Shown here piece by piece: positions 10 to 59,751 of a stretch of DNA of 64,000 nucleotides; the first letter of the stretch is position 1; every line of letters starts with the position of its first letter. Position numbers and translations under genes: made by a program. The stretch is from Naegleria gruberi (Eukaryota). A model generated the notes under the pieces. It saw only the letters and a program-made list of their open reading frames with translations. It was not told the DNA's origin and did not search any database. Location: NCBI GenBank assembly GCA_000004985.1, contig GG738865.1; one strand, given 5' to 3'.

Positions 10-3000
10 ATGAAGTTGTTTGATGGTGGACAAAATAAACAACTACATCAGCGACGTGGTTTTGATGGGTTGAAATGTGTAATCATTTTGATGATGACAA
101 TTTTCTCTTTAATTTATGTAATTTCTGCTAATAATAGCAGCACTGATCAAGTTAGGAGCAAGCTTGATATTGAATTAAAAGCAACATGGAAGGAAACATC
201 ATTGTTGATGGAAGCTTTGTAAGTTTTAAATTTTCGGAATTTGTTTATCGGAATTTATTATTTAGTGAATATTTTTCTGATAAATTGCCAGATCGCAAGA
301 CATCTTTTTTAAAGTCAATCCCTTGTGAAAAAGTTGATCAGATCAAGAATGATAGAAATGCTATTTTGACTCTTGCTCAACAAAGCAAAGCTACTGTTGC
401 TGAAGTTTCACTTCTCGATTTTGCACTCGATACTAGACATTATTCTCCAAGAGTTAAAGTTCAATACACCAAGAATACGAACATTGTTAAATCGAATTTA
501 AATACCATTGTTCCTAAGAATGTTGAGGATATTGAAGTTTTGGATCATACTTTTAACATTAATTCCGAAACACAAATTAATTTTATTTATTCAGACATCA
601 CAACACAAGAGGGATGTAAATTTGTAAAGGAAAATATTGATTCAATTAAACCAATCGTTTTACGATTGGTAAGACTTGATTCAACAGGTTCAATTGACAA
701 GGAAGAAATGATAAAGGAAAAATACATGGAAGAAGCCTCAAGTGATTTACTCTCTATTCGTGGTTATGGTGTGGAATTACAAATCAAAAATATGGAATAC
801 AAACAAACTGCCGACGATGATGTTGTTAGTGGAAATGACACCTTCTATAAGGGTGTTAACTTTAACAAGTTGAAGAAGAATTATCCTCACTTGTCAAATG
901 ACTTGGATACCCTCAAGCTTCACATTCAACAAAGTGATTCCAAATCGGAGAAGCTTAAGGTTTGGGAAATGAAATATTTTGGTGTACAAGCAATGAAAAA
1001 GATTAGCGACCAACCTTCATTTGATGAAAAAATCAAAATGTTACAAGATATTTCACAAAACTTCCCAAGTTACATGAAAGAATTGAAGAATACAGCATTT
1101 GAAAACAGTTTTAAAGACCAAATCCAATCACATTTGTCCAGATATGATGGAGAATTCAAGTCTAGAAATCCAAACAATCCACAAGAAGTTATTAGAAGAA
1201 ATGCTTTGTTTTTGAATGGTTTAGAGTTGGATCTTACAAAGTTGTCTGTCTTCTCTTTGTTTGAAACTATGGATAAGGAATTGAAGCTTGTCAAGTCCCT
1301 TTCATCAGATTATCATCTTAGTTCCAATTCTGTTGAATCAGTCTTGTTTACTCCTTCTACTGCTAGCAAGGACTTGAGATTCAAGTTCTCCTCTGAATTA
1401 GAAAAGCAAGTTATTTGGTTCAATAATATTGAAAGTGATAGTTACAATAACTTCCCAAGAGATCTCAAGTCAATGCTCCATCCAACCATGTATGGACAAA
1501 TGAGATTTGTAAGAAGAAATTTGTTCAATGTTGTTTTCATTTTGGATCCTGCAAGTACACAAAAACAAGTAGCCCAATTACTTTACATCCTTGGTAACAT
1601 TATGAACAGAGGTTATCCAATTAGAATTGGTGCCTTGTTTATTCCAAAAGTTTCTTCCGGTTTTGTTGACGTTGACCTTACTGGATCATCCTCTGCCTCC
1701 CCTGAAACTGTTGATGAATTGTCTTTGCACGCTGTTTCTTTATTGGAACGTATGGCTAAGGAAAACAGAGCTGTTTTCCCAATTCTTAGGGAATTTATGG
1801 ATAGAGAATCCTTTGATAGTCAATTTGTTGATGATCTTCAAAAAAGATTCTTTGGCTCTGTAAGATTAATGTCGCAACAAGAACTTATTAGTAGATACAG
1901 AAGTTTTACAAATATGGGATTTGATGTTAAGTCATCTCCAATTGTAATGGTAAACGGTGCTGTAATTCAAGGCGAGGAGCAAGACTCTGGTGACCAACTT
2001 GTAATGAAGGGAGTTAGAGAACAATACGATGCTGTTAAGAATTTAATTGAAAATAATGTAGTTGTAGATAATGACAAGAACCTATTGGAAAAGATAATTA
2101 ACCACTATGGTGGGTTTGATAAGTTCAACTCTGAAATCTTCAGTAAGAAACAATATGGTATTGTATCCTTGGGTGATATTGATCAAATTAATTTTGTTCA
2201 ACATCCTGAAAGTGGAGGAGTTGTTAAAAAGACACACATTGTCTGTGTAGGTGATAACCAAGACGCATCATTATTAGTTAAGGAAGCTATTTCATTCATC
2301 TCCAAAAATCAGAAGACAAGAATTGGTTTCTTGAATGTTGCTGATTCTAGTTTTTCATCTCTTGCTAAATACCATGTTCTCTACAAACCTAATGGATCTA
2401 ATCAATTATCTGGTAAGAATTTCTGTTCCAAACACTTTAATGCCAAAGAATCTGGTATTATTTCTATGAATGGTAGAATCATCCCGCTTACTAATTTATT
2501 TACAAGCAAAGATATTACTATTCTTGATGCCTTCGAGGATGTTAACTCTGCCATTATTTCTACAATTGAATCAAATTCCTACTCAACTGTTGACCCTGAT
2601 ATTGTAACAAGTGATTACTTGAGCGATGTTCTCTTTGGTGTTTCATCTGTATTGAAGGTCTTCAATCAGTATAAGAGACAAGATTTGAACCATGTTCAAT
2701 CAAGCAGTGTTGCTACTCTTGAAACTGAGTCAAATCCATCTGCAGAAATCAAGTTGATTGCCATCCTCAATCCACTCTCCAAATTTGCTCAAAAAATTTC
2801 TCCACTTATTAGATTTGTTAAGGAAAAGCTTGGAAAATCTGTAAACGTGGTTGTTCATCTTAATCCAGATCTTGAAACTTCAAATTTACCTCTTCAAAGT
2901 TATTACACATATGTTTTATCTGGGTCAAGTGTTGCAGAATTCAATACTAGATTCTCAGATGTTAAAGGACGTATTTTCACCATGTGGATGGATGTTCCAG

Positions 3001-4400
3001 AATCTTGGTTGGTTGATAGTACTTACGCTAAAGAAGATTTGGATAACTTGAAGCTCGATGAATGTGCCTCTCAAAAGTGTTATGCTCGCTTCCAATTGGA
3101 ATACTTTGTTGCTTCAGGTACATGTATTGATGATAATGGAAGACCAGTTAGAGGATTACAATTACAACTGGTCCACAACTATGGTGTCAATGCTACAAAT
3201 GTTGACGATACTACATTGGTTATGGCAAACTATGGTTATTTCCAACTTAGAGCTTCTTCACCAAATATTTATTCTGTTAACCTTCCAAAGGGTAGACACT
3301 CTGATATTTATTCTGTTCAATCCACTAAGCAAGTAGATTTCTACTCTCAAAGTGAATTGCAACATTCTGATGGATATGGAAGTGCTGATACAAAGAAATT
3401 CCTTATTTCAGTTCATTCATTTGATGCACCATTTGCAAGAGTTGTTGTTAAGAGAAATAGTGGAATGGAAAAGGAAGATCTTTTAGCACCTACTCCATCT
3501 TCTGGTGGCTGGAGTTCATGGCTCTCTTCTAACAGCAACCAAGAAAAGAAGACCATTCACATTTTCTCTTTGGCATCAGGTTTGATGTATGAAAGATTGT
3601 TAAAGATTATGATCTTGTCAGTAAGAAAGCATTTGAAGAGAAGTGATGTCAAAGTCAAATTCTGGTTCTTGAAGCAATTCTTATCTCCTTCTTTGAAGCA
3701 ATTCTTACCAGAATATGCCAAAGCTTACAACTTTGAATACGGTTTAATCAGCTACCAATGGCCTCACTGGCTTCATAAGCAACAAACCAAGCAAAGATTA
3801 ATTTGGGCCTATAAGGTTCTCTTCCTTGACGTATTATTCCCACTTCAAGAAGTTAACAAGATTATCTTTGTGGATGCTGATCAAGTTTGTAGAACTGACA
3901 TGTCAGAATTATTCTTTGATTTGGATATGCAAGGTAAAGCTTTGGCCTACACTCCTTTCTGTGAATCTAGAAAGGAGATGGATGGTTACAGATTCTGGAA
4001 GACTGGTTATTGGGCCAACCATCTCGGTGGAAGACCATACCACATTTCTGCTCTCTATGTAGTTGATATTGATATGTTTAGAAGAAATTATCATGGTGAT
4101 CAATTTAGAATGGTTTATGATAATCTTGCCAGAGATCCAAATAGTTTATCCAATCTCGATCAAGATCTTCCAAACTATGCTCAACACAATGTTCCAATTC
4201 GTTCACTTCCTCAAGAATGGTTGTGGTGTGAAAGTTGGTGTTCAGATGAAAGCAAGGCTAAAGCCAAGACAATTGATCTTTGTAACAATCCACAAACTAA
4301 GGAACACAAATTGGCAAGTGCCAAGAGAATTATTCCTGAATGGACTGATTATGATAATGAAATTAAGGATTTCCAAAAGAAATTAGTTGTTGGAAAATAA
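10..4400 (+). CDS. UDP-glucose:glycoprotein glucosyltransferase (UGGT). Two exons, 10..218 and 266..4400, with a 47-nt GTAAGT..TAG intron at 219..265.
   Basis: The N-terminal exon encodes a signal peptide (VIILMMTIFSLIYVISA). After splicing, ...KATWKETSLLMEAFEYFSDK... aligns with the UGGT N-terminus (..TTKWFSTPLLLEASEFLAE..). The C-terminus has a GT8/glucosyltransferase-24 catalytic domain (DADQVCRTDMSELF...NNPQTKEHKL). The ATG at 10 is confirmed. Confidence 0.9.
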
Positions 4401-7714: not shown

Positions 7715-9856
7715 ATGACTGTCAGTCGTGGTGAGGATACACAATTGCTGCTTCAACAGCAAGATCAGAATAATCTCTCTTGGGATGAAATCAAACGTTT
7801 ATTGCAAGATTCGGATGCTTTCCAATTGTCAAGTACCAAAGCTTGGTCTCAAGTTTTAATGACAATTGCCTTCCTTACTCTTGGTATTGTTGCTGCTGCC
7901 ATGTTTCCATGGTATTTACTTCCAATCAGTTGGTTCTTTGTTGGCTTGTGTGCCAGTGGTTTGATGGGTGTTGCTTATGCTTGTAGTGAAAATAGATTTT
8001 TCAATCAAAAGACAATGCCAAGTTGGGTCAATGATTTGGTTGGTATGATTTGCATGTTGCCATTGCTTTATCCATTTGAAGCTTTTAAGACCTTGGCAAA
8101 CAAGTCAGAAGAAGAAAAATCACAAAATGTCAATCAAGAAGATGAAGGTTTTGTTATGAAAGCTTTGGCTTTTGTTTTGAAGAGTCCATTGTGGTTTTTG
8201 AGTTCAATCTTTGATTGGTTCAGAGCTAACATTTATTTTGAAACTAAGAAGAGTATTGTTATCAATGCAGTTGTTCTCTATGTATTTGCTGCTGCATTCT
8301 TCTCTTTGATGGTTTACTTTGTTGGTTTGTGGGGATTGGTCAAGTTCTATGTTGCTCCACTTATTGCCTACCATTTGATCAACTCTACTTTTATGAAGGT
8401 CAATGATGCTGATGCTAAGAAGAATACCATTACTCATTTCCCATCTATTATTGAATTCTTGACTAACTATGCCAACCATTCTTATAGAATCAAGTTGAAG
8501 TGGAACAAGAAGGCCAATAATAACAATGAAACAATTACTCAAAACTTGAAGGAAAAGTTGATCAAGGTTGTTCCAAACTATAACTGGAATAAGGCTAAGA
8601 ATGCTCTCTGTGAAAAGTTTGGTAAGAATTTGGAAGGTATTGGTGGTACTACTTTCTTCTCTGATTTGGGAAAGACTTTTGAAAATGAAGTTGATTTGAG
8701 AAATATTGACTGGTTCATCACCATTTACTTGATTGGATCCGTTGTTGGTACTATTTATGGTGTTATGACTTGTGCTTTCAACTGGAAGACTTATGTTTTG
8801 AGCTTTGTTGGATATTACATTGCTGGTATTGGTATTACTGCTGGTTATCACAGAGTTTTTGCTCATCGTTCCTGTAAGGCAACATGGCCAGTTAGAGTTT
8901 TCTTAATGTTACTCGGTACAAGTGCTTTCCAAGGAAGTGTTGTTTCTTGGTCAGCTGATCACCGTAGACACCATCAATATGTTGATACTGAAAGAGATCC
9001 ATACAATATTAAGAACTCTTTCTTCTATGCTCACATGGGATGGTTGATGTGGAAGAGAGAAGTTGATACTACAAATGCTAAGGATTTACTTTCTGATCCT
9101 GTTATCAAATTCCATCATGAATATTATCCATATTTGGCTGTCTTTTTGGGATATTTGTGTCCAATGCTGATTGCTGGTTTATGTTGGGGCGATTATTATG
9201 GTGGCTTCTTCATCGCAGGTGTCTTGTCAAAGACTTTCCTCCAACATTGTACTTTCTTTATTAACAGTTTGGCTCACTCTTGGGGTGTTTCCACTTTCAA
9301 TGACGATCACACAGCTTGTGATTCATATATGGTCAGTTTGTTCACTTTTGGTGAAGGTTATCACAATTTCCATCACACATTCGCCTACGATTACAGAAAT
9401 GGTGTTCGTTGGTATCACTATGACCCAGGCAAATGGCTTCTCTATATGTTCTCTCTCTTTGGCATGACCTATGATTTGAAACGTTGTGATCCAATTCACT
9501 ACGAAAAGGGTAAACTTATCATGATGCAAAAGAGAATCGATGAAGAACAAAAGAAGATTGATGAAGAAAAGAAACTTTATGATTGGGGTACTCCTCTTGA
9601 AAAGTTGCCAACCAAATCATATGAAGAATTCCAAAAGGATTGCAAGACCAAATCTTTAATCATTATTGATAATGTTGTCCATGATGTCACTAACTTTATT
9701 GGTGAACATCCAGGTGGTGAAACTATCTTGAAAGCTTATCTTGGTAAGGATGCCACTAAGGCCTTCAAGGGTGATGTTTACTTGCACACTAACGTTGCCA
9801 AGAATATTTTGGCTCAAATCAGAATTTACAAACTTGCTCCCCAAAAGAGTGATTAA
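7715..9856 (+). CDS. Acyl-CoA delta-9 desaturase (OLE1 type) with a C-terminal cytochrome b5 domain and an N-terminal degenerate FAD2-like domain.
   Basis: The delta-9 histidine boxes are intact: HRVFAHR, HRRHHQY and HNFHHTF. Alignment to yeast OLE1 is clear (ITAGYHR.., GEGYHNFHH.., DYRN..WYHYDP). The cyt b5 motif HPGGE..LGKDAT.AF is present near the C-terminus. The ATG at 7715 is preferred over the upstream TTG. The N-terminal 230 aa aligns to delta-12/FAD2 desaturases, but the His boxes are replaced (HECGHH to ACSENR, HRRHH to ANKSE, HVAHH to LIAYH). Confidence 0.9.
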   Translation: MTVSRGEDTQLLLQQQDQNNLSWDEIKRLLQDSDAFQLSSTKAWSQVLMTIAFLTLGIVAAAMFPWYLLPISWFFVGLCASGLMGVAYACSENRFFNQKTMPSWVNDLVGMICMLPLLYPFEAFKTLANKSEEEKSQNVNQEDEGFVMKALAFVLKSPLWFLSSIFDWFRANIYFETKKSIVINAVVLYVFAAAFFSLMVYFVGLWGLVKFYVAPLIAYHLINSTFMKVNDADAKKNTITHFPSIIEFLTNYANHSYRIKLKWNKKANNNNETITQNLKEKLIKVVPNYNWNKAKNALCEKFGKNLEGIGGTTFFSDLGKTFENEVDLRNIDWFITIYLIGSVVGTIYGVMTCAFNWKTYVLSFVGYYIAGIGITAGYHRVFAHRSCKATWPVRVFLMLLGTSAFQGSVVSWSADHRRHHQYVDTERDPYNIKNSFFYAHMGWLMWKREVDTTNAKDLLSDPVIKFHHEYYPYLAVFLGYLCPMLIAGLCWGDYYGGFFIAGVLSKTFLQHCTFFINSLAHSWGVSTFNDDHTACDSYMVSLFTFGEGYHNFHHTFAYDYRNGVRWYHYDPGKWLLYMFSLFGMTYDLKRCDPIHYEKGKLIMMQKRIDEEQKKIDEEKKLYDWGTPLEKLPTKSYEEFQKDCKTKSLIIIDNVVHDVTNFIGEHPGGETILKAYLGKDATKAFKGDVYLHTNVAKNILAQIRIYKLAPQKSD

Positions 9857-10082: not shown

Positions 10083-11420
10083 ATGAGATTCGTTAAGGAA
10101 CACCTTGAGGTGATTACTTGTTACATTCCTTCTGCTCATGAAATTACCTCCACAATTGAAAGCTTTGACGAATTGAAACTGTGTAAGGATCATTTTCCTC
10201 CCAACACTTGTTTCAATGTTTTTTGGTTTAATCAGAAATCTTGGGCTGCCCCAATATGCAGGTATATTAGTGAATATTTTGATACTTTGAAGGAATTATC
10301 TAGTGCCAAAGAGGGTTCAATGGCTGTAGTTAGGTTGTGTGCATTGGACAAACAACGCGAATCCTCTCTACCAAAGAAGGTTGTAACATCAGGATCTGGT
10401 TTTTATATGCTTCCCAATTTGGTGATTACTAATTGCCATGTTAATGAAAAGATTGGAACAAATCCTTGCTTTGCATTTAGTAATGCATGGAATATTGGTT
10501 ATTTTGATGATGCTCTTAAACAAGTAGAGCAACTTCCAGAAAAGAAGAGATTATGTTTTTCAGGACAATTATTGAAACTAACTCCCTACGAAACCAAGTT
10601 CAAACAAACAAAAATATGGACAGGAATTGATGCAATTACTGGAGAGATTGGAGACTTTTCATTCTTTGATTTTTCTGCTGTCCTATTCACAGGCAAACCA
10701 AATAATGTGATTTTCATACCTTCATCAACAGTATTGCAACCAGGAGATGAAATTATTACTCTTTCCTATCCTGGTGATGAAGAAAACACTTCACCATTAA
10801 AAGATTATGCAAACTATGCTAGTTGGGCACCCAGTGAATTGGTTATGAAAAGCAATATCTTTAATGGTTATGGAACTTTGTGTGCAAGTTTCGGCAAAAT
10901 TTTACATCCTTTCAGAAACATCAATGATGAATGGGAGAAGGACGAAGAGTTCAGGTACAACTCTTCCAATCAAGAGTGTCTAGCTAGCTCTGAATGTCTA
11001 TTTTTTGGCAGCTCTGGAGGAGTTATGATTTCCAAATCATGCCAAGTGCATCATGTTAATAATTTAACTCTTGTTGAATTTCATGCCATTCATGTTGGAG
11101 GAGAATTTGTTAGATGCAATGATTGCTTAAGAAAACATAGTGTTGCCATGAGGGAGTTTTGGGAAGATAATCACAATTCAGATCAACGAATTAAAGTTGA
11201 CTGTCAACCACAAGATTGGAGAATTTGTGAAAAGTGCTTGAATGATTCAGATCTGAATTTCAATAATCCATTATCGTATTCAAATAGTATATCAGTTCAT
11301 TCGAAGCCATTCGTTGAGTTTTTTGAAATGATTATTCTACCAGAATTGAAAAAATTGATTAATGTTTCAGATGTTTCTTCACTTGTTGAATATTGCCAAG
11401 AACATGGGATTAATTATTGA
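10083..11420 (+). CDS. Trypsin-fold (PA clan, Trypsin_2-like) serine peptidase with a Cys-rich C-terminal region.
   Basis: A catalytic-His motif LVITNCHV and a catalytic-Ser motif FFGSSGGVM are in the right order and spacing. The C-terminal 110 aa has paired CxxC motifs (CNDCLRKHS...CEKCLNDSD). ATG is confirmed. Confidence 0.55.
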   Translation: MRFVKEHLEVITCYIPSAHEITSTIESFDELKLCKDHFPPNTCFNVFWFNQKSWAAPICRYISEYFDTLKELSSAKEGSMAVVRLCALDKQRESSLPKKVVTSGSGFYMLPNLVITNCHVNEKIGTNPCFAFSNAWNIGYFDDALKQVEQLPEKKRLCFSGQLLKLTPYETKFKQTKIWTGIDAITGEIGDFSFFDFSAVLFTGKPNNVIFIPSSTVLQPGDEIITLSYPGDEENTSPLKDYANYASWAPSELVMKSNIFNGYGTLCASFGKILHPFRNINDEWEKDEEFRYNSSNQECLASSECLFFGSSGGVMISKSCQVHHVNNLTLVEFHAIHVGGEFVRCNDCLRKHSVAMREFWEDNHNSDQRIKVDCQPQDWRICEKCLNDSDLNFNNPLSYSNSISVHSKPFVEFFEMIILPELKKLINVSDVSSLVEYCQEHGINY

Positions 11421-12516: not shown

Positions 12517-15500
12517 ATGCATCCAAACCATGCAACACCCATCCATCAGCCACATTGTTTTTATTTGGTCTTGTCGATTCTAATCTTCTTTTCATCATTT
12601 AGTTTGGCAAATAATGTGGAATTTTATATTCACTCCAGGATTGGACAAGATTCTCCCACATGTGGAATGATGGAAAGTTTACCATGTAAAACAATTCGAT
12701 ATCCTATTGATAATTTAATGAATAATACAAATTCAGGAAATAATATTCTAATTAAATTGATGAATAATTGGATAGGTGATTGTATTTTGTTTAATAATGA
12801 GAATGTGACTATTGATAGCATTCATTTTATGGGAACGAATCGATTGGTCAACTTGGAATGTAGTGCGGATCAGAACCAAGTCAAAATACCATTGGTTAGA
12901 TTTTCAAATTTGAATTTGGATTTGGTAATGTTTGGAGTTAGTCAATTGGAAATTTTCAACTGTACAATAGTTGATTTTGTGGTGAATGATATTCGGAGAA
13001 GTTTAATTCTGGATAATATACAAGTAGGAACAGAAAATTTGAAACAATTGCTTGAAAAAGATTCGAATATCGATTTGAAAAAGGTTATATTTAATATTTT
13101 CATTGAACTTGGATCAATAGATACGAGCAGTAAGGAAGTTATTGTAAGAAATTCACATATTATTGGCTGTAATTTATATGTTGGATCTACACTTTCGAAT
13201 GGTTCGTTGCTAGTTGAAAATTCCACATTTGAATATTCTCTTTTAGATTTAACTAATGGTTTAGGATACACTCCAAAATCGGTCCCTAGACCATCATTTT
13301 ATATTGCCAGTTCCAAATTTTATAGGTCATCCATTCAAGCACGTGAAGCACTTTCTGTTACTATTCAAAATTGTGAACTCATTCAAAATATTCCAAACAA
13401 ATTGGCAATTGTACTTTCATTAATACCCAATTCCATTTATGCAGCATTTTCAGTTACTTCCTCTGCAATCTGCAACGTATTAGTGTCAGCGTCTGTATTT
13501 TCCAATTGTCAATCAGTTGGTGCAATGTATTTAGAGGGAACTGGTATCAATGCAGAAGTAGAATGGTCACATTTTAAAGATAATTCGAATGTTAAGGGAG
13601 GAGCAGCTATTAATTTACAAACTATTTATAATCTATTTGCTCATAATACAATATTTGAGAATAACAAGCAAGTTTTAGATTCGAGTGAAAGTTTATCAAA
13701 TATTAAGGCAGACGAAAGAGGAGGCGGAGCTATTTTACAATATCAATCCCTATTAACAACAGAATCATGTATTTTTATTAACAATGAAGGAATTACAGGA
13801 GGTGCAGTTCTCAATTTTCAAGCTCATAAATACAAAAGTAGTGTAGATGTAAGTAGTTTCGTTAAGGTTGGCCTAATTGACCAAAAATTAATCAAAAATA
13901 GTATTTTTATAACAATACAGCATCTTATGGAGGTGCTTGTGCATCTATTGATTTTACCTATTCCTCTAGTGTTTATATATACTCATCAACATTTGAGAAA
14001 AACAAAGCCACCAAATATGGTGGAGCTATTTTCACATTGAAAACCGTCTTGAATCTTGGATTTCAAACATTTTCAATCAATAATAATTATGCAGGAATAT
14101 CTGGTGGAGGTGCCTATACTGTTGGAACGAAACAAGAGAATGGCGTACCTTTGATAGATCGGTGCAAAGACAATTACAATGGAAATGGAAAGCTTTCAAA
14201 TCATGATGCATTCCCAGAGATTATCAGTTTAAGAATTCCAGTAAAACAATTTCTATCAATGAGTAATGATAGCAATAGCAATGCTAAAATGTTGGAAACA
14301 TCATTTGGAGAGAAATTAGTGCTCAATTTAGATTTGTTTGACAATACATATGGAAATGATAATATTCCAGTGAATTCGTTCACTGAAATGGAACTCTCTG
14401 TGGAAACAAAACCTTCCAAGGACATGACATTTGAAATTCATCAGCCGACCACCAATGAAATTGATGGAATTCTATATTCTAGATCTACCAATGAAAAATT
14501 AAGAGGAAATGGAACTTTAATATTTACAATCAAGTCATCTCTATTCAAAACTGGAACATTTTCATCCCAAATAGAAATTGCTGTGACCCCAATGGAATGT
14601 AAACCTTGGTTCTCTCTTCAAGCGGATATGAAAAAGATTGTAAATGGTGGTTTTGCATACTCATGTGAATTTAACTCATACCTTATCATTCCATTTGTAG
14701 TGTCATCTGTACTTATTGTAGGATGTATAGTTTTTACTATTATTGGAATTGTTTGTTTCAAATTTTATGGAATGAAGAGTAAAATTAAAGTTCTTCATAA
14801 GAAGGAACAAGCAGAGGAAGAGTTGACTCAAAAATTATTGGATTTACAATCACTATATACATCTGAATTAGAATCCAAATATTCCATTAAGAATTGGCTA
14901 ATCAAGATTGAGGATATCAAGGTTATAAAAAAGATTGGTGAAGGAGGAATGGGAGTTGTCTATCTAGCTCTGTAAGTTTAATTCATGGACTCTATAATCT
15001 TATTCAATTATGTGAAATTTAGTTGGAAAAATGTTGAAGTTGCTTTGAAGACAATTAAATTAGAGGAAGATGATATGGATTCTAGTGAATTTGAACATGA
15101 ATCTTCAATGCTTTCATCTATAAGACATCCAAATGTTGTTAACCTTTATGGAGTGGTCTTATCAGATCAATCAAAATTCATGGTAACTGAATATATGAAT
15201 GGAGGATGTTTGGAAAAATTAATTTATGATTGTAAAATGAAGAAGAAACATATCAATCTGAGAGAAAAAGTTTCAATTCTTATTGGAATTGCAAATGGAA
15301 TGAGTTATTTACATGGTGGAAAGGATAATTGTATGATTATTCACAGGTGAGTTGATTTCGTATATTTTTAACTAATCAATTCAATCAGAGATTTGAAACC
15401 AGGAAATATTCTACTATCCAATGATTTAACACCTAAAATTGCTGACTTTGGTTTATCAACACTTTCCAATCAAAGCTCAAACACAACCAAAACACAGCAT

Positions 15501-51405: not shown

Positions 51406-54400
51406 ATGGGTAAGAATACAGAGCAAAGAAAACCAAAATCACAAAAAGGTGCTATTAGTGCTTCTCAAGCAGCGAATGTACTTTCTAGTAAATCTGGTAG
51501 TAGTTCTAGTGGTGGTTTATTGGGAAGCTCATTGATGGAAGCCTTTAGTAAAAAATCAAGCCTTGGCTCATCATCATTGGATTCATCTTCATCATCTTCA
51601 TCATCATCATCACTCGATCCAACTGTACAATCCTATTTAAAACATTTAAATAAGAGAGATCCAACAACAAGATGTAAAGCATTACAATCTCTTACACAAT
51701 ACATTTCCGAACAACAACCAGAAGATCAAACTAATACATGTAAAAACATTTTAGAACATTTTGAAGAAGTATTTAAAAAGATTGCAGTGATAGACCTTGA
51801 TAGAAAAGTTAGATTAAATTTATTTATTTTATGGAAATTAATTGTTCAAAATGTAGGAAAGAAATTAGGTTTTCATATTAAAAAGATTATGCCATATTGG
51901 TTAATGGAAATGGTTGGAATTGATGATAGAGATGTTTCTAAAGCTGCTATTGCTGCATTTCATCAAGGATTTCCTCCAGAAAAGAGAGATGCTGCTATTT
52001 TATACTGCGATAATGAAATTATGAATAATTTATTTGAAAATTTTAATCAAACTGTAGAATCTTTAAGTTTAAACGAAACTGAACAACAAAGTATTACTAA
52101 AGAAGAAGCAGAAGAAAGATATTCAAGATTTATTACTAGTTCTATTCTAATGTTAAACAAAATGATTGATTTAACTACCCAACAACAACAACAAACAAGT
52201 CAACCAGCAACAGGTGAATCCTATAAGAAAATATTTGGATCTAAGAATTTTTGGAAGTTTTTAGGTATTAAATCTTATACAAATATTAGAGAAGCTATGA
52301 GTAGATTGACAATTACTTTACTCAAGAATGATTTATTGAAAAAGGATGATCCTGAAGTAGTTGAACATATTGTTCCATTTGTTGCTCCAATTTTTATTGG
52401 ATGTTTTAATCAACAACCTTTAGAAAGAACAACTTTGGATTCTTTAATTTTGTTTTTACAAAAATTTGCTCCTGAATGTTGGGCTCATGTTAATGTTTGG
52501 AAACAAACATTCCCTAGATTCTTTTCATTCCTTAAAGATCCATCTAATCCATCAATTAACTATCCAATTGTATTACCTTTCATTTCAATGTTAAATACTT
52601 CTATTTATGGAGCTGATAAGTCAATCAAATTTGTTTCTGATTTATTTGAAAATATGTGGATTGGTTTTGAAAAGTATTGTTCTTCAAATAATCCAAATGT
52701 AAATTCTGCTACTAATAGACAAGCTATTAAAGCTGATAGAGATGCAATTATTGATTCTATTTGTAATTGTATTATTTACATTGCTTTGCAAACTGAAAAA
52801 TATTGCACTGAAGAACAAAAACCAGAAATTCTCAAAATTACTAGATCTACCTTAGAAAAGATTACCATTTATTATTTAACAAATTCAAATACTGTTAATT
52901 ATGGTAAATATCTTTCAGCTGCAATTACAAAGATACAATCAAAACCAGAATTAGCAGAATATATGAATCAATTTTGGAGTGAAATTACAAACTTTACTTT
53001 GAATAATATTAACAAGATTGATGTAGTTTCAATTGAAATTTTCATTTCTAGGTGTGTTAAAGAAAAATTGGAACATGTTTTTAAACTTGCTCATGAATTA
53101 TTTGACAAGTGTATGATGATTGGACAAATTGATGTTGCATCCGCAGTTGCATTCTCCTATCCAACTGTATTGAAATCAACATTATTTGAAGATACTTTGA
53201 AAACTTTATGGCAAACAAGTCAATTCAATGAACATGTTCAACAAATTGTTGGTCTCTATTTTACTCAATTCCAAGATCAATTTGAAAAGTTTGAAAAAGT
53301 TTTAGAAGAAGAAATTAAAGAAGGAAGAGCTCAAGTTCCAATTTTCCCACTCCTCAGATCACTCTACTCTGAGGAAGAAACATTCAGCAAGACTAGTGTT
53401 TCATTGGAAAAGTCATTGTTGGCTAGAAGAGATCTCGACAGTATTGAATATCTCATCACTCACAAACTCTATTCATCAAAGGAAGATTTGAGAAGACTTT
53501 TAACTGATATCATTTCCAATGGAGATGATTTACAAGAAAGAGCTGTTGAATTTATCATTTCTACACCAAGTGAATATAGTATTGACAAGAGTGTTTTGTT
53601 TGCTTTATTCAAGGGTGCTCATTATGGTACTTTGGCTCAATTAATTTCTGATAAACCAAAGCAACAAGAAGACGATGAGGAGGAAGAACAAGATCATGAT
53701 GAAGAGGAAGTTTACACCAATGTTATTACAAGTGAAATGAAGAGTGAATTGTTGAATGATATTACCATCTATTTGAAAGATATCATTACACAAGATTCCA
53801 AGATTACCAATGATATTATTTTAGATCAATTCCTTAAACTTGTAGAATTATCTGGTAGTAATACTCTTGCTGATTCTGTTTTATTGAATTATGAAAATGA
53901 TTCAGTTTGGTCTTTTATTAGAAATCAATGTGCATCCAATCTTAAACCAATTGTTATTGGTAATCAAGTTATTTGGAATAGTACAAAAGATACCAATGTT
54001 TCTGAATTGGAAAAGTCAGTTATCAAGTATAGTCGTTTAGTTTGTGTTGTATTGTCCTATGTTGAAGCAATTCACAAGAATCAAATGGAAATTAGAGAAC
54101 AAAAATGGGAATGGCTTGTTAGAGAAGTTTTACATTCCTTCTATTTTGAATTCTTATTCAATGATTTTACCAAGAATTTAATTAACAAATTCTTAGCTCA
54201 TGTTAATTCAACTGAAGGTTTAAATCTTGAATTTTGTGAATATTTAGCTCATAGACATGAATTGGAATTGTTAAAGATTTACATTTCCATGAATTCTGAT
54301 AAGGTTTCTGGTTTAGATTGTAGCAAGTTATTATTCAAAACAGAAGATGTTAATGATGTTATTTCTGATAAGAACAAATCTAATACTTTCTATGAACTTG

Positions 54401-56148
54401 TTCAATCATTATTTGATAATGACACTGATTTGAGAGGTTTAACAATTTCCAATGAAAAAGTAACTGAATGGTTACTTGGATGTATTAGTATTTCAAGTAC
54501 ATTGGATAATCTTTCAGAGAGTAGCTATGATCACTTAAATTTAATCAAAGTACAAGCAGCTTTATCAATTGTCTATTGTAAACAATTTGTCAATACTTTA
54601 GAAGATGAAGAAGAAATTACCATTGATTCTATTATTGATTTTGCTAAAGAATTTTATGAACAAATCAAACAATCAAATTCTTCTACTGAATTGAATCAAA
54701 TTAGTATTATTGTTGCTAATTTATTAATTAGTGTTTATGGAACTAATGATACAGTTAAAATTGAAGATAATACCTTTGTTGAACAATTTATTACTTCAAA
54801 CTTGCAAGAATTAACAAATAATTTAGAAAATAATTTCGAGTTACTTGATAAGATTATTCATTTATCAGCATGTGTCGCTAAACACAAGAAGAATATTATG
54901 ATTGTTGAAAAACTCATTCATACATTCTTACTTTTGAATAGAGAATCTTTAAATCTCTCAAATCAATATCCAACTGTTATGGAGAGACTTATTAGTAGAA
55001 GTTCAAAATATTTGAAACCATTACAATTATATCAAAATTATTCTGAAATTAAATTAGAAAGTAATTATATTAAGGAAATTTTAGAAATTATTGAAAATAG
55101 TCAAATTGCCAATGCTAAAATTGTTGCAACTGATTTACTGTTATTAACAAATTATCATCAAGATGGTGAAAAAGTTTTAAAACTTATGGAAAATATGAAG
55201 AAACATGTACCTGAACAATTTAATAATATTCTTCAAGAAAGTGCAGTTAGAAATAAGCACATGACACAATTTGTTCAATTATATTCTGAATATAGTAATG
55301 ATAATAATAATGAGTTACCATATTTATTATCTTGGTATTATATTCTTTGTTTAATTGAAACAGATGCAATTTCTCAAGATCAAAATGATAATTCCTTTGA
55401 TTTATTTACCAAACTTAAAGAAAGTCAAGCTTATGCACCAATTTTAAGTTTATTAACATGTTTCTTATATAGTGGTGAGGATGCAATGTTTTCAATGGAA
55501 TTTAGAGAATTTGGAGATGATTTAATGTACAAATTTTCTAAAGTTTTACCTTTATTTGTTAGAATGTGGTTTAATAATTGTAATGATACAGTTACAATTG
55601 ATTGGATTCAAAAGAGATTTTCTGATTCATATAGTCCTGCCATTATTAGAGATGAAATTTCAAAGATTAAAAAATCAGATGCACTCTCAAAATCACTTGG
55701 AGCTAAAATTTCAATGGGAAATCAAATTATTGCCAAATATGAACAAGATGAAGTAGTGTTAAAATTAACAATCAAAATACCAGATTTATATCCATTGAAA
55801 CCACTTCAAATTGAATCTAATGAACATTCAGCAGTTGATGAAAATAAGTATAGAAAATGGATATTGAAAATGACAACCATGTTATTTAGTCAAGTAACAA
55901 GTAATGGTGTTTCAGATGTTTTAGTTTTATGGAAGGAGAATTTAGACAAACATTTCCAAGGAGTTGAACCATGTCCAATTTGTTACAGTGTTGTTTCTGG
56001 AAGAGATCACCAAATACCAAAAGTTGAATGTAAAATTTGTCATAACAAATTCCATGGTGCTTGTATTTATAGATGGTTCTCTACAAGTGGAAATCAAACT
56101 TGTCCAATGTGTCGTAGTATTGGTCAATTTGTTTCAAATCATAAATAA
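51406..56148 (+). CDS. E3 ubiquitin ligase Listerin (Ltn1/RKR1), intronless, 1580 aa.
   Basis: A HEAT-like body is followed by a C-terminal RWD region and a RING-CH domain (CPICYSVV..CKICHNKFHGACIYRWFSTSGNQTCPMCR). ATG is confirmed. Confidence 0.9.
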   Translation: MGKNTEQRKPKSQKGAISASQAANVLSSKSGSSSSGGLLGSSLMEAFSKKSSLGSSSLDSSSSSSSSSSLDPTVQSYLKHLNKRDPTTRCKALQSLTQYISEQQPEDQTNTCKNILEHFEEVFKKIAVIDLDRKVRLNLFILWKLIVQNVGKKLGFHIKKIMPYWLMEMVGIDDRDVSKAAIAAFHQGFPPEKRDAAILYCDNEIMNNLFENFNQTVESLSLNETEQQSITKEEAEERYSRFITSSILMLNKMIDLTTQQQQQTSQPATGESYKKIFGSKNFWKFLGIKSYTNIREAMSRLTITLLKNDLLKKDDPEVVEHIVPFVAPIFIGCFNQQPLERTTLDSLILFLQKFAPECWAHVNVWKQTFPRFFSFLKDPSNPSINYPIVLPFISMLNTSIYGADKSIKFVSDLFENMWIGFEKYCSSNNPNVNSATNRQAIKADRDAIIDSICNCIIYIALQTEKYCTEEQKPEILKITRSTLEKITIYYLTNSNTVNYGKYLSAAITKIQSKPELAEYMNQFWSEITNFTLNNINKIDVVSIEIFISRCVKEKLEHVFKLAHELFDKCMMIGQIDVASAVAFSYPTVLKSTLFEDTLKTLWQTSQFNEHVQQIVGLYFTQFQDQFEKFEKVLEEEIKEGRAQVPIFPLLRSLYSEEETFSKTSVSLEKSLLARRDLDSIEYLITHKLYSSKEDLRRLLTDIISNGDDLQERAVEFIISTPSEYSIDKSVLFALFKGAHYGTLAQLISDKPKQQEDDEEEEQDHDEEEVYTNVITSEMKSELLNDITIYLKDIITQDSKITNDIILDQFLKLVELSGSNTLADSVLLNYENDSVWSFIRNQCASNLKPIVIGNQVIWNSTKDTNVSELEKSVIKYSRLVCVVLSYVEAIHKNQMEIREQKWEWLVREVLHSFYFEFLFNDFTKNLINKFLAHVNSTEGLNLEFCEYLAHRHELELLKIYISMNSDKVSGLDCSKLLFKTEDVNDVISDKNKSNTFYELVQSLFDNDTDLRGLTISNEKVTEWLLGCISISSTLDNLSESSYDHLNLIKVQAALSIVYCKQFVNTLEDEEEITIDSIIDFAKEFYEQIKQSNSSTELNQISIIVANLLISVYGTNDTVKIEDNTFVEQFITSNLQELTNNLENNFELLDKIIHLSACVAKHKKNIMIVEKLIHTFLLLNRESLNLSNQYPTVMERLISRSSKYLKPLQLYQNYSEIKLESNYIKEILEIIENSQIANAKIVATDLLLLTNYHQDGEKVLKLMENMKKHVPEQFNNILQESAVRNKHMTQFVQLYSEYSNDNNNELPYLLSWYYILCLIETDAISQDQNDNSFDLFTKLKESQAYAPILSLLTCFLYSGEDAMFSMEFREFGDDLMYKFSKVLPLFVRMWFNNCNDTVTIDWIQKRFSDSYSPAIIRDEISKIKKSDALSKSLGAKISMGNQIIAKYEQDEVVLKLTIKIPDLYPLKPLQIESNEHSAVDENKYRKWILKMTTMLFSQVTSNGVSDVLVLWKENLDKHFQGVEPCPICYSVVSGRDHQIPKVECKICHNKFHGACIYRWFSTSGNQTCPMCRSIGQFVSNHK

Positions 56149-56426: not shown

Positions 56427-58334
56427 ATGCAAAATTCAACCTCTTCATCTACTTCATCACTCGGAGGAAGTAGCAATGGTAGCACAAAGCCTAAAGTTAA
56501 ACCACTTCCAACAGCTCCACTCACCTCCAATCATCACCAACAACAACAACAACAATATTCAAAATCACCAAATACAACAACTTTTTATCCTCCTCCATCA
56601 TCTTCATCATCTTCATCATTAGCCTCTCATTCATCCAATAATACAAATCATACAAATCATCATCATACAAATAATAATCAATATGAATCTAATCTAACAG
56701 ATCAAGATCAACAAACATTAACCAATACAATTATTAAAGAATATTTAACAGCACAAGATGTAATTGATACATTTAAATTAGATGAACAATATCCATCATT
56801 AAAAACAAGTGAATTATCTTATTTTTATGATTTACTAGATGATGAATTTGATGATTATGGTGAAAATTTATCAATTTTTGAAAAATTTTATTACCATAAT
56901 TCAACTATTCAAAATTTAGATCATTTTAATAATAATTTATCTAATAATAATAATAATTTATTAAATAATAATAATTTATCTAATAATAATAATTCTAATA
57001 ATTTAAATAATTTATCTAATAATAATTTAAATAATAATAATTTAATTAATTCAAATTTTAATATTGAAAGTAAAATTGATGAAAAAATGATAATTAATGA
57101 ATTAAATTCCAATTCTGAAATGACAAGATTAAAATCAATTAGAGATTTAAAATTACTTGTAAAATATAAAAAAGAATATTCCATATTTATATTACCACAA
57201 TTATTTTCCTTATATAGTACAATTGAAGATGAAGAACATTATAAACAAAATTATGAATTTAATTCAACATTTCAAATATTACAAGTTATTACTTTTATTA
57301 GTGAAAATTATTCAATTGAATGTAAAAAAGAATATTCAAATCATTTTTATAACATGTTATATATTTTATCAAAAAGGAAATTACCTAAAAAGTATACAAA
57401 CAAATTTATTATAATTAATTTTTTAAAATTATTAAATATTTACATGCCAAATTATTTAATTGATAAAAATGATTTTTATGAATTTGAAAATATTGCATTT
57501 CCTTATTATATTAAATTTATTTCTTTAAATTTTATTTTATTTAATTCTTTATATTTTAATTTTATTTTAAAATCTTTAAAAATTACAAATTTGGAAATTA
57601 AAAATGAAATTGAAAATATTATTGATTTTTATTTTTATATTTTTAATGAATTTAAATATACTAAATATGTAATTAATCAATTAAAAGATTTATTTTCAAT
57701 TATTAATGAAAAATATTTAAATTCTACTTTACAATATTTTATTAATTTATTTAAAAATGAAAAATTAATTTTAGTAATGATTTTAAATAGTATTAATTTT
57801 AAATATTTAAAAAATTTAAATATTTTAGAAATTTTAAATGAAAATTTATTAAATAATTTTGAAAATAATTTAAAATTACTTGATATAGGTGAACAAGTAA
57901 TTTTATTTAATAATTTATTTAATTTATTTAATATTTTATTTAAATTTAATGATAATTTAATTTCTATTTTTATTAAATTACATGAAAATTATTTTGAAAA
58001 TATTTATAAACCATATCATTCATGTTTAAATTTTATTAATAATAGAATTAAATATACAAAATTAGAAAATGTTAAAATACAAGATGTTACAATTAAAATT
58101 TTAATTATTTTTAAAAATTTAATTAAAAAATCAAATTTTGATGAAATTATTTATAATTATTATAAATATTCAATTATTAATAATAATTTTAATATTTTAA
58201 ATTTAAATGAATTTAATCAATGTTTAATTCAAATATTAAAAAATAATAATAATTTAAATATTGATTTATTAAATGAAATTAAATTATTAACAGATAATGA
58301 TGATTTAATTCAATTAATTAATGAAAAATGTTAA
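56427..58334 (+). CDS. Low-complexity Asn/Ile/Leu/Lys-rich protein of unknown function.
   Basis: It is an uninterrupted 635-codon frame. The first third has ordinary composition with Ser/Gln/His runs. The last roughly 1.4 kb is nearly 90% AT, with long AAT (Asn) codon arrays, yet has no stop codon in frame. Confidence 0.5.
   Translation: MQNSTSSSTSSLGGSSNGSTKPKVKPLPTAPLTSNHHQQQQQQYSKSPNTTTFYPPPSSSSSSSLASHSSNNTNHTNHHHTNNNQYESNLTDQDQQTLTNTIIKEYLTAQDVIDTFKLDEQYPSLKTSELSYFYDLLDDEFDDYGENLSIFEKFYYHNSTIQNLDHFNNNLSNNNNNLLNNNNLSNNNNSNNLNNLSNNNLNNNNLINSNFNIESKIDEKMIINELNSNSEMTRLKSIRDLKLLVKYKKEYSIFILPQLFSLYSTIEDEEHYKQNYEFNSTFQILQVITFISENYSIECKKEYSNHFYNMLYILSKRKLPKKYTNKFIIINFLKLLNIYMPNYLIDKNDFYEFENIAFPYYIKFISLNFILFNSLYFNFILKSLKITNLEIKNEIENIIDFYFYIFNEFKYTKYVINQLKDLFSIINEKYLNSTLQYFINLFKNEKLILVMILNSINFKYLKNLNILEILNENLLNNFENNLKLLDIGEQVILFNNLFNLFNILFKFNDNLISIFIKLHENYFENIYKPYHSCLNFINNRIKYTKLENVKIQDVTIKILIIFKNLIKKSNFDEIIYNYYKYSIINNNFNILNLNEFNQCLIQILKNNNNLNIDLLNEIKLLTDNDDLIQLINEKC
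56935..57060 (+). repeat. AAT/AAT-TTA codon microsatellite array encoding poly-Asn/Leu (NNNLSNNNNNLLNNNN...).
   Basis: Read directly from the sequence. It lies within CDS 56427..58334. Confidence 0.7.
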
Positions 58335-59701: not shown

Positions 59702-59751
59702 NNNNNNNNNNNNNNNNNNNNNNNNNNNNNNNNNNNNNNNNNNNNNNNNNN
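59702..59751. other. Assembly gap (50 N).
   Basis: Run of N. Confidence 1.

Follow-up and report, generated by a model that had tools for sequence, protein, structure and literature searches.

What is a second membrane-desaturase domain, stripped of its metal ligands, doing in front of an otherwise ordinary delta-9 desaturase? The question is raised by an intron-less gene at positions 7715..9856 (+ strand) of a 64,000-nucleotide stretch of the Naegleria gruberi contig GG738865.1 (GenBank assembly GCA_000004985.1; hereafter the window), whose product departs from the usual picture of a delta-9 desaturase as a single core with or without cytochrome b5. The first-pass annotation of the window, made from the letters alone, had read this product as an active desaturase to which a second, inactivated desaturase fold, a pseudo-enzyme module, is fused in cis, a reading upheld by the Pfam matches, the homology to DesA and FAD6, the fold match and the loss of all eight metal ligands. 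We consider it likely that the protein combines a dead FAD6-type module with an active delta-9 desaturase/cytochrome b5 enzyme, the former being kept as a non-catalytic partner. What is new here is that a known enzyme carries a conserved module of the pseudo-desaturase kind, and that an intact, possibly bifunctional relative exists; the two active modules by themselves make up an ordinary OLE1-type enzyme.

The coding sequence (CDS) runs from an ATG at 7715 to a TAA at 9854-9856 and specifies 713 residues, with 2,139 stop-free nucleotides across both desaturase domains. Pfam recognizes two PF00487 stretches and one of PF00173 in the protein, and its full-length AlphaFold (AF2) model has a predicted local distance difference test score (pLDDT) of 80.7 and a predicted template-modeling score (pTM) of 0.64. 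The modules are laid out as follows:

7715..9856, + strand: complete intron-less CDS for pseudo-desaturase, delta-9 desaturase and cytochrome b5 (open reading frame [ORF] list and sequence)
7715..7813, + strand: poorly conserved cytosolic N-terminal tail, residues 1-33 (low pLDDT, low identity)
7814..8635, + strand: FAD6/DesA-type pseudo-desaturase domain, residues 34-307, with four membrane helices and no di-iron ligands
8636..8704, + strand: linker joining the two desaturase domains, residues 308-330, about 23 in all (low pLDDT; length varies among homologs)
8705..9514, + strand: acyl-CoA delta-9 desaturase core, residues 331-600 (PF00487, Foldseek, invariant ligands)
9623..9826, + strand: cytochrome b5 domain, residues 637-704 (PF00173, Foldseek, near-invariant heme histidine)

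The first 19 to 21 residues fall below a pLDDT of 50 in the AF2 models. Hydropathy and the full-length model place helical hairpins at residues 43-91 and 178-218 of the N-terminal domain (hereafter N-domain) and at residues 333-383 and 471-522 of the delta-9 core; this amounts to 4 + 4 membrane helices, as had been anticipated from the letters, and an even pair of hairpins per half would leave the ends of each module all on one side. Judging from sequence and model together, the gene product is likely to be one endoplasmic reticulum (ER)-type membrane polypeptide with three modules.

Might the fused frame be an artifact, with two adjacent genes or an assembly error read as one? We regard this as barely credible. 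The frame is free of stops over both domains and the linker between them is only about 23 residues long. The top database match of the 713-residue protein, FDP41_010547 of Naegleria fowleri (80% identity over 97% of its length), is likewise encoded by a single uninterrupted intron-less CDS (L001, 6001-8148), with the same continuity on two independent assemblies, and the next homolog, that of Willaertia magna (68% identity), shows the same continuous CDS. The searched collection has no cluster at or above 90% identity, and these matches place the host among Naegleria-like heteroloboseans and not among the dictyostelids, as the first-pass annotation had implied. Further, full-length fusions come from transcript assemblies of relatives, namely the glaucophyte Cyanoptyche gloeocystis (P0036, with all three modules on one 2,886-nt MMETSP contig, ORF 138-2468), a EukProt Trinity entry (the Stenamoeba stenopodia P0040 cluster) and a Physarum transcript entry. 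The one-gene reading thus prevails over that of two separate genes, and a merged gene model was rejected on the continuity of the CDS in three genera together with the transcript-derived fusion homologs.

As to what the N-domain is, residues 1-330 searched alone against PF00487 returned a significant match (E = 5.3e-9; 36.7 bits against a gathering score of 29.7 bits; residues 66-257, hidden Markov model positions 3-194). BLASTP of residues 1-335 against two cyanobacterial DesA proteins (347-350 residues) gave 29-31% identity over approximately 290-345 columns (E = 3e-39 and 1e-39), in alignments spanning essentially the whole length of DesA and residues 34-307 of the Naegleria protein; a profile built from 14 fusion N-domains matches cyanobacterial acyl-lipid omega-6 (delta-12) desaturases at about 1e-80. 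An ordinary low-complexity N-terminal extension of an OLE1-like protein, the reading which the first-pass annotation had set against its own, is rejected on these Pfam and BLAST results. The AF2 model of the N-domain, with pLDDT above 90 in the membrane helices, has the four-helix membrane-desaturase fold over residues 34-307, the domain being full length except for about 15-20 residues lost after the fourth transmembrane helix (TM4) and part of the C-terminal tail. In NCBIfam the N-domain finds no match, and the delta-9 core and a true DesA give only sub-threshold generic matches there. On these alignments the N-domain is a full-length homolog of the plastid FAD6 and cyanobacterial DesA delta-12 (omega-6) acyl-lipid desaturases, homologous from end to end and sharing their fold and the conserved residues of their scaffold; it differs from them in lacking all eight histidine ligands, in having the third histidine box overwritten by an insertion, and in being fused to another enzyme. 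The label 'delta-12/FAD2-type' originally given to it holds for the delta-12-type homology but not demonstrably for FAD2 of the ER: the relatives retrieved with the N-domain are all of the FAD6/DesA type, in a comparison set without a verified FAD2 sequence, and the intact fusions carry HDCGH at box 1. The N-domain is thus apparently of the FAD6/DesA, plastid-lineage kind rather than ER FAD2.

To describe the fate of the di-iron center, we counted histidine ligands at the eight canonical positions after aligning the fusion N-domains to DesA. The corresponding sites in the Naegleria gene are:

7976..7990, + strand: former histidine box 1, YACSE for HDCGH, residues 88-92 (aligned with DesA and the intact fusion P0036)
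8096..8110, + strand: former histidine box 2, ANKSE for HxxHH, residues 128-132 (alignment; variable positions in 40 dead-domain homologs)
8360..8374, + strand: LIAYH, the 'WxxYH' motif of TM4, residues 216-220 (aligned with PWMVYH of DesA)
8462..8584, + strand: true box-3 region, residues 250-290, HDINVHxPHH changed to TNYANHSYRIKLKW plus an insertion of about 25 residues, ending in (I/V)PxYN, itself conserved (alignment)

None of the eight ligands remains (0/8). That all three boxes are replaced, as first claimed, is correct for boxes 1 and 2 (the latter by ANKSE, as stated) and for the loss of box 3; the details need amending at two points. The replacement of box 1 had been labeled one residue out of register, HECGHH corresponding to YACSEN and not ACSENR, with the box-1 cysteine (C90) kept and invariant among homologs. 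LIAYH, which had been taken for the remnant of box 3 (HVAHH), aligns instead with the conserved W-x-x-Y-H in helix four of DesA; its histidine, H220, shows little or no variation among homologs and is one that active enzymes keep too. The site of box 3 lies at residues ~250-290, where the sequence reads TNYANHSYRIKLKW...VVPNYN and the HxxHH is gone. Because LIAYH was mistaken for box 3, the segment between boxes 2 and 3 had also appeared to be shortened by about 80 residues, a deletion that does not exist. The insertion at box 3 is predicted to form a beta hairpin at residues 262-277, with a block-mean pLDDT of about 54-60 in the full-length AF2 model, and residues 258-275 fall below 50 in the model of the N-domain alone.

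Across the 40 homologs with 0/8 histidines, seven of the eight columns that once held ligands rank with the most variable of the domain: their commonest residue has a frequency of 0.15-0.46 (domain mean 0.50), and K, R, Q, T, I and E occur there side by side, while 27 of the 30 best-conserved columns hold the same residue as active DesA. The scaffold is thus conserved and the metal site not, with no conserved substitute set of ligands. With all eight ligands lost and no conserved replacement, the N-domain is predicted to be unable to hold a di-iron center and to be catalytically dead: by sequence it is a homolog of the FAD6/DesA family, of which it would not be a functional member. One might still suppose that the N-domain remains an enzyme, a desaturase or hydroxylase working through a non-histidine metal site or some other chemistry, given that its fold and hydrophobic scaffold are intact and that the Naegleria protein has acidic residues (E92 and E132) at former ligand positions. 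However, these positions are unconserved even among close homologs, the box-3 helix has been replaced by insertions differing in length and sequence, and we know of no membrane desaturase of this superfamily that works without its histidine cluster; we therefore hold continued catalysis to be very unlikely. An alternative metal site in particular was rejected on the variability of the former ligand columns.

The rest of the protein presents the opposite picture, with these motifs:

8849-8866, + strand: HRVFAH, delta-9 histidine box, residues 379-384
8960-8974, + strand: HRRHH, delta-9 histidine box, residues 416-420
9263-9277, + strand: NSLAH, extra Asn/His ligand segment, residues 517-521
9362-9376, + strand: HNFHH, delta-9 histidine box, residues 550-554
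9707-9718, + strand: HPGG heme motif of cytochrome b5, residues 665-668

The delta-9 core matches PF00487 at residues 364-575 (E = 6.8e-14) and the cytochrome b5 domain matches PF00173 at residues 637-704 (E = 5.5e-16); among 29 aligned homologs, the delta-9 ligand residues vary hardly or not at all, and the heme histidines H665 and H691 (the second one) are near-invariant. Foldseek searches with the AF2 model recovered SCD1 structures (6wf2, 4ymk and 4zyo; E ~1e-13, 30% identity, template-modeling score on the target 0.71-0.77) for the core and many cytochrome b5 structures for the C-terminal part. Every ligand being intact, the earlier description of both parts as canonical holds: residues 331-704 are, by sequence and model, a canonical OLE1-like acyl-CoA delta-9 desaturase plus b5 with a complete di-iron ligand set, and the predicted activity of the core is the delta-9 regiospecific desaturation of 16:0/18:0-CoA, for which it would receive electrons from its own fused cytochrome b5. 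This part shares with fungal OLE1 (and with SCD1 for the core) the order of desaturase then b5, the three histidine boxes, the Asn/His of NSLAH and HPGG, and is 42-45% identical to stand-alone delta-9/b5 proteins. Whereas OLE1 and SCD1 have only a short cytosolic N-terminus, the Naegleria protein adds about 300 residues, which make up the dead desaturase domain and bring in four further membrane helices.

The combination is by no means confined to Naegleria. An initial database search retrieved approximately 45 proteins of the same architecture, and an exhaustive profile search added further clusters; the hosts include Naegleria (two paralogs), Willaertia, many dictyostelids, Physarum, Balamuthia, Stenamoeba and Ancoracysta, alongside a sequence filed under a locust genome and many environmental transcripts. 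The dictyostelid versions are annotated 'Delta 9 fatty acid desaturase ScdA'. Dictyostelium ScdA and the other proteins of about 700 residues from Amoebozoa and Heterolobosea are homologs of the 713-residue protein, 40-44% identical to it over 95% of the length and sharing its three-part layout with a dead N-domain (0/8 histidines), but their annotation does not go beyond 'delta-9 desaturase'. In work on Dictyostelium, ScdA has been employed both as a control ('metabolic enzyme') and as a marker for phylogeny. Pfam finds one PF00487 stretch only in D. discoideum ScdA, missing the N-domain, which may be the reason that the latter went unnoticed. The statement that this arrangement is not known in described delta-9 desaturases thus needs qualification: it is widespread in databases under the name 'delta-9 desaturase', but in the open literature (the scope of our search, subscription journals lying outside it) we came upon no account of such enzymes carrying a dead desaturase domain.

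Alignment of these relatives, which had been proposed as a check, shows that the N-domain is conserved among them and that some retain histidine boxes. Its histidine count is 8/8 in Cyanoptyche P0036 and in P0301, 6/8 in Stenamoeba P0040, P0192 and P0234, 1-4 in several others and 0/8 in most. Both P0036 and P0301 have the same domain order and a homologous delta-9 part, P0036 with all three modules and P0301 (639 residues) with two, Pfam finding no cytochrome b5 domain in it; they differ from the Naegleria protein in their eight N-domain ligands and in being near active FAD6/DesA, as shown for P0036 by 53-59% identity over the full length to plant chloroplast FAD6 and Synechocystis DesA. These two proteins may, by their sequences, be genuinely bifunctional. 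Separately, two Euglena longa proteins (P0277 and P0448; 883-1010 residues) have a FAD2-like domain with 7/8 histidines placed C-terminal to their delta-9 core, and multi-desaturase fusions are thus wider than the family with the N-domain first.

In a neighbor-joining (NJ) tree of N-domains, the fusions and eukaryotic FAD6 are split from cyanobacterial DesA with 92% bootstrap support; at two sites the fusions mostly have T/E, like the displayed plant FAD6, while half of the stand-alone set, including the displayed cyanobacterial proteins, has histidine. Neither Naegleria nor the dictyostelids are known to possess plastids, and the presence in such hosts of a FAD6-type domain hints either at an ancient gene transfer with an alga as donor or at a eukaryotic FAD6 of great age. 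Since P0036 and P0301 still carry eight N-domain ligands, the family would descend from an active fusion, i.e., from an ancestor in which an active FAD6-type desaturase had been joined to a delta-9 desaturase and cytochrome b5; the delta-12 chemistry would then have been lost and the domain held thereafter by purifying selection.

Is the dead domain so held, or is it a fossil? The first-pass annotation had left open whether it was a functional module or the relic of a merged tandem pair, and the ratio of nonsynonymous to synonymous substitution (dN/dS, Nei-Gojobori method) against the N. fowleri ortholog bears on this choice. It is 0.094 for the dead core (residues 40-310; 82% amino acid identity), 0.103 for the delta-9 core (84%), 0.20 for cytochrome b5 and 0.31 for the tail of residues 1-39 (59%), all of these values being approximate because dS, at about 1.2-1.3, is near saturation; approximate as the ratios are, the two cores are clearly equal. 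Among eight dictyostelids, mean identity is 67% in the dead domain, 79% in the delta-9 core and 66% in b5. We read these figures as purifying selection on the dead domain as strong as that on the active core, and the equality of the ratios favors the functional module over the fossil.

A decaying, tolerated and functionless remnant of a once bifunctional enzyme would account for the loss of all catalytic ligands, for the overwriting of box 3 by a lineage-variable insertion, for the failure of Pfam to detect the domain any longer in D. discoideum ScdA, and for the faster change of the dead domain at deep divergence (mean identity 36% versus 56% for the delta-9 core). It is hard to reconcile, however, with a dN/dS and an identity to N. 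fowleri on par with those of the active core, with a conservation within dictyostelids equal to that of cytochrome b5, with the retention of the fold-defining residues in the top columns, or with a full-length domain free of frameshifts and stops in Heterolobosea, Dictyostelia, Physarum, Balamuthia and others. Further, both Naegleria paralogs retain the dead domain. We accordingly judge the remnant to be an improbable explanation. The second paralog (P0003 in N. gruberi, P0006 in N. fowleri and P0011 in N. lovaniensis) has a dead FAD6-like domain and intact delta-9 boxes and is without the cytochrome b5 domain, having no HPGG and ending in a charged coiled tail; the two paralogs group at 100% bootstrap, which points to a duplication after the death of the domain.

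If the domain is kept, for what? A lead comes from its closest structural match, the non-catalytic FAD6-like protein FADL/FAD6a of Chlamydomonas (PDB 8xks and 8xqw; approximately 20% identity), chain 8xks_K being the only PDB chain matched in sequence by the N-domain profile (E = 3.7e-25); in the profile alignment this chain has one of the two box-1 histidines and the whole of box 2, while box 3 is missing. FAD6a is a subunit of the Chlamydomonas Orf2971-FtsHi chloroplast import motor, has partly conserved histidine boxes without iron density, and bears in its tunnel a fatty-acid-shaped density overlapping the substrate position of SCD1 (bioRxiv 10.1101/2024.09.02.610899). The N-domain resembles it in having a FAD6 fold with degenerate histidine boxes. 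It differs in that FADL keeps about half of its histidines and is a separate, unfused plastid inner-envelope protein in the Orf2971(Ycf2)-FtsHi import complex; the N-domain, covalently fused to a delta-9 desaturase, is not a subunit of such a plastid motor. That FAD6a holds a fatty acid without iron indicates that a FAD6-derived protein can persist as a lipid-holding structural subunit.

Purifying selection on a dead domain implies some role which the delta-9 enzyme would need, and the N-domain probably has a non-catalytic job. Membrane desaturases have been reported to form homo- and heterodimers, which would make an intramolecular pseudo-dimer plausible, and we propose that the N-domain might act as a permanently tethered non-catalytic partner, a 'pseudo-heterodimer' within one chain. 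Such a partner would give the delta-9 domain stability or its proper position in the membrane, offer a binding site for a neighboring acyl chain or glycerolipid, or do both. The exact role of the N-domain may be one of stability, of lipid sensing and regulation, or of product hand-over. A sharper version of this explanation makes the N-domain a membrane-lipid sensor: by binding the acyl chain of a glycerolipid, it would adjust how active the delta-9 domain is, or how fast that domain is turned over, to the saturation of the membrane. The FAD6/DesA family acts on the acyl chains of membrane glycerolipids, the related FADL/FAD6a retains a bound fatty acid without iron and the purifying selection is strong, all of which would suit a sensor; however, a purely structural role accounts for the same data, and we regard the sensor as a rather doubtful, if reasonable, specification of the tethered-partner explanation. 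In its broadest form, which we advance tentatively as a possibility, the proposal would have a FAD6-derived pseudo-desaturase, a class of pseudo-enzyme not recognized before, as an obligatory lipid-binding regulatory partner of the essential delta-9 desaturase in several eukaryotic supergroups, the model Dictyostelium and the pathogen N. fowleri among them, derived from a single-chain enzyme still intact in glaucophytes; its FAD6-type ancestry in amoebae without plastids would in addition point to an ancient alga-to-amoeba transfer. If this were true, a single chain, the intact glaucophyte FAD6-type/delta-9/b5 enzyme, could carry stearate all the way to linoleate.

Several points weigh against the explanation of a retained partner descended from an active fusion. 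The near-saturated dS and the faster change of the dead domain at deep divergence temper the case from selection, and a partner or lipid-binding role is drawn from only two lines, the FADL analogy and purifying selection. The pTM of the full-length model is modest. The degenerate N-domains form a clade at 85% in the NJ tree, a value possibly inflated by long-branch attraction; the intact N-domains fall outside this clade, with that of P0036 grouping weakly with stand-alone eukaryotic FAD6, and all the fusions come together in one of 100 bootstrap replicates of the N-domain NJ tree. The deep nodes of the NJ tree of the delta-9/b5 part have less than 50% support, and neither tree lends support to a single fusion event or to a stepwise 8-6-4-0 loss of histidines.

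With respect to the surroundings of the gene, the window has a GC content of 33%. A UDP-glucose:glycoprotein glucosyltransferase (UGGT; 186-4400, + strand) and a listerin E3 ligase (51406-56148, + strand) lie on either side, and both also flank the N. fowleri desaturase ortholog, there at distances of no more than a few kb; in the present window the interval between the desaturase and listerin is taken up by about 41 kb of further genes, coding for a kinase, a leucine-rich-repeat protein, DUF3591, HSP70, APC8/Cdc23 and others. Three ORFs adjoining or near the desaturase (10083-11420, 12517-14040 and 56427-58334, all on the + strand; 445, 507 and 635 residues) have no Pfam match at E = 1e-5. 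An antisense ORF of 220 residues (8204-8866, - strand), rich in Asn, Ser and Ile, overlaps the desaturase CDS and is probably spurious, an AT-rich coding region read backwards. The sequence becomes AT-richer from about 54 kb (GC 0.26 at 54-56 kb as against 0.29-0.36 in most 2-kb bins), with still lower GC beyond 58 kb that is partly owing to runs of N: there is a 50-N assembly gap at 59702-59751, directly followed by a Pro/Arg-rich repetitive coding stretch (RPRP and GxRP units) and then a hydrophobic segment, and N padding extends from 60661 to the end, so that the last real base is 60660.

The fluidity of membranes is set by delta-9 desaturases, which in many eukaryotes are essential enzymes or drug targets, and the carriers of the dead domain include the brain-eating N. 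fowleri, the dictyostelids, Physarum and Balamuthia. Should the enzyme depend on the domain for its stability, its regulation or the hand-over of lipid, the domain would represent a new principle in how a central lipid enzyme is regulated, a second independent reuse of an iron-less FAD6 fold after that in Chlamydomonas FADL, and a parasite-specific feature that human SCD1 lacks. The glaucophyte version, being intact, suggests in turn the existence of natural bifunctional desaturase fusions, which would be of interest for lipid engineering.

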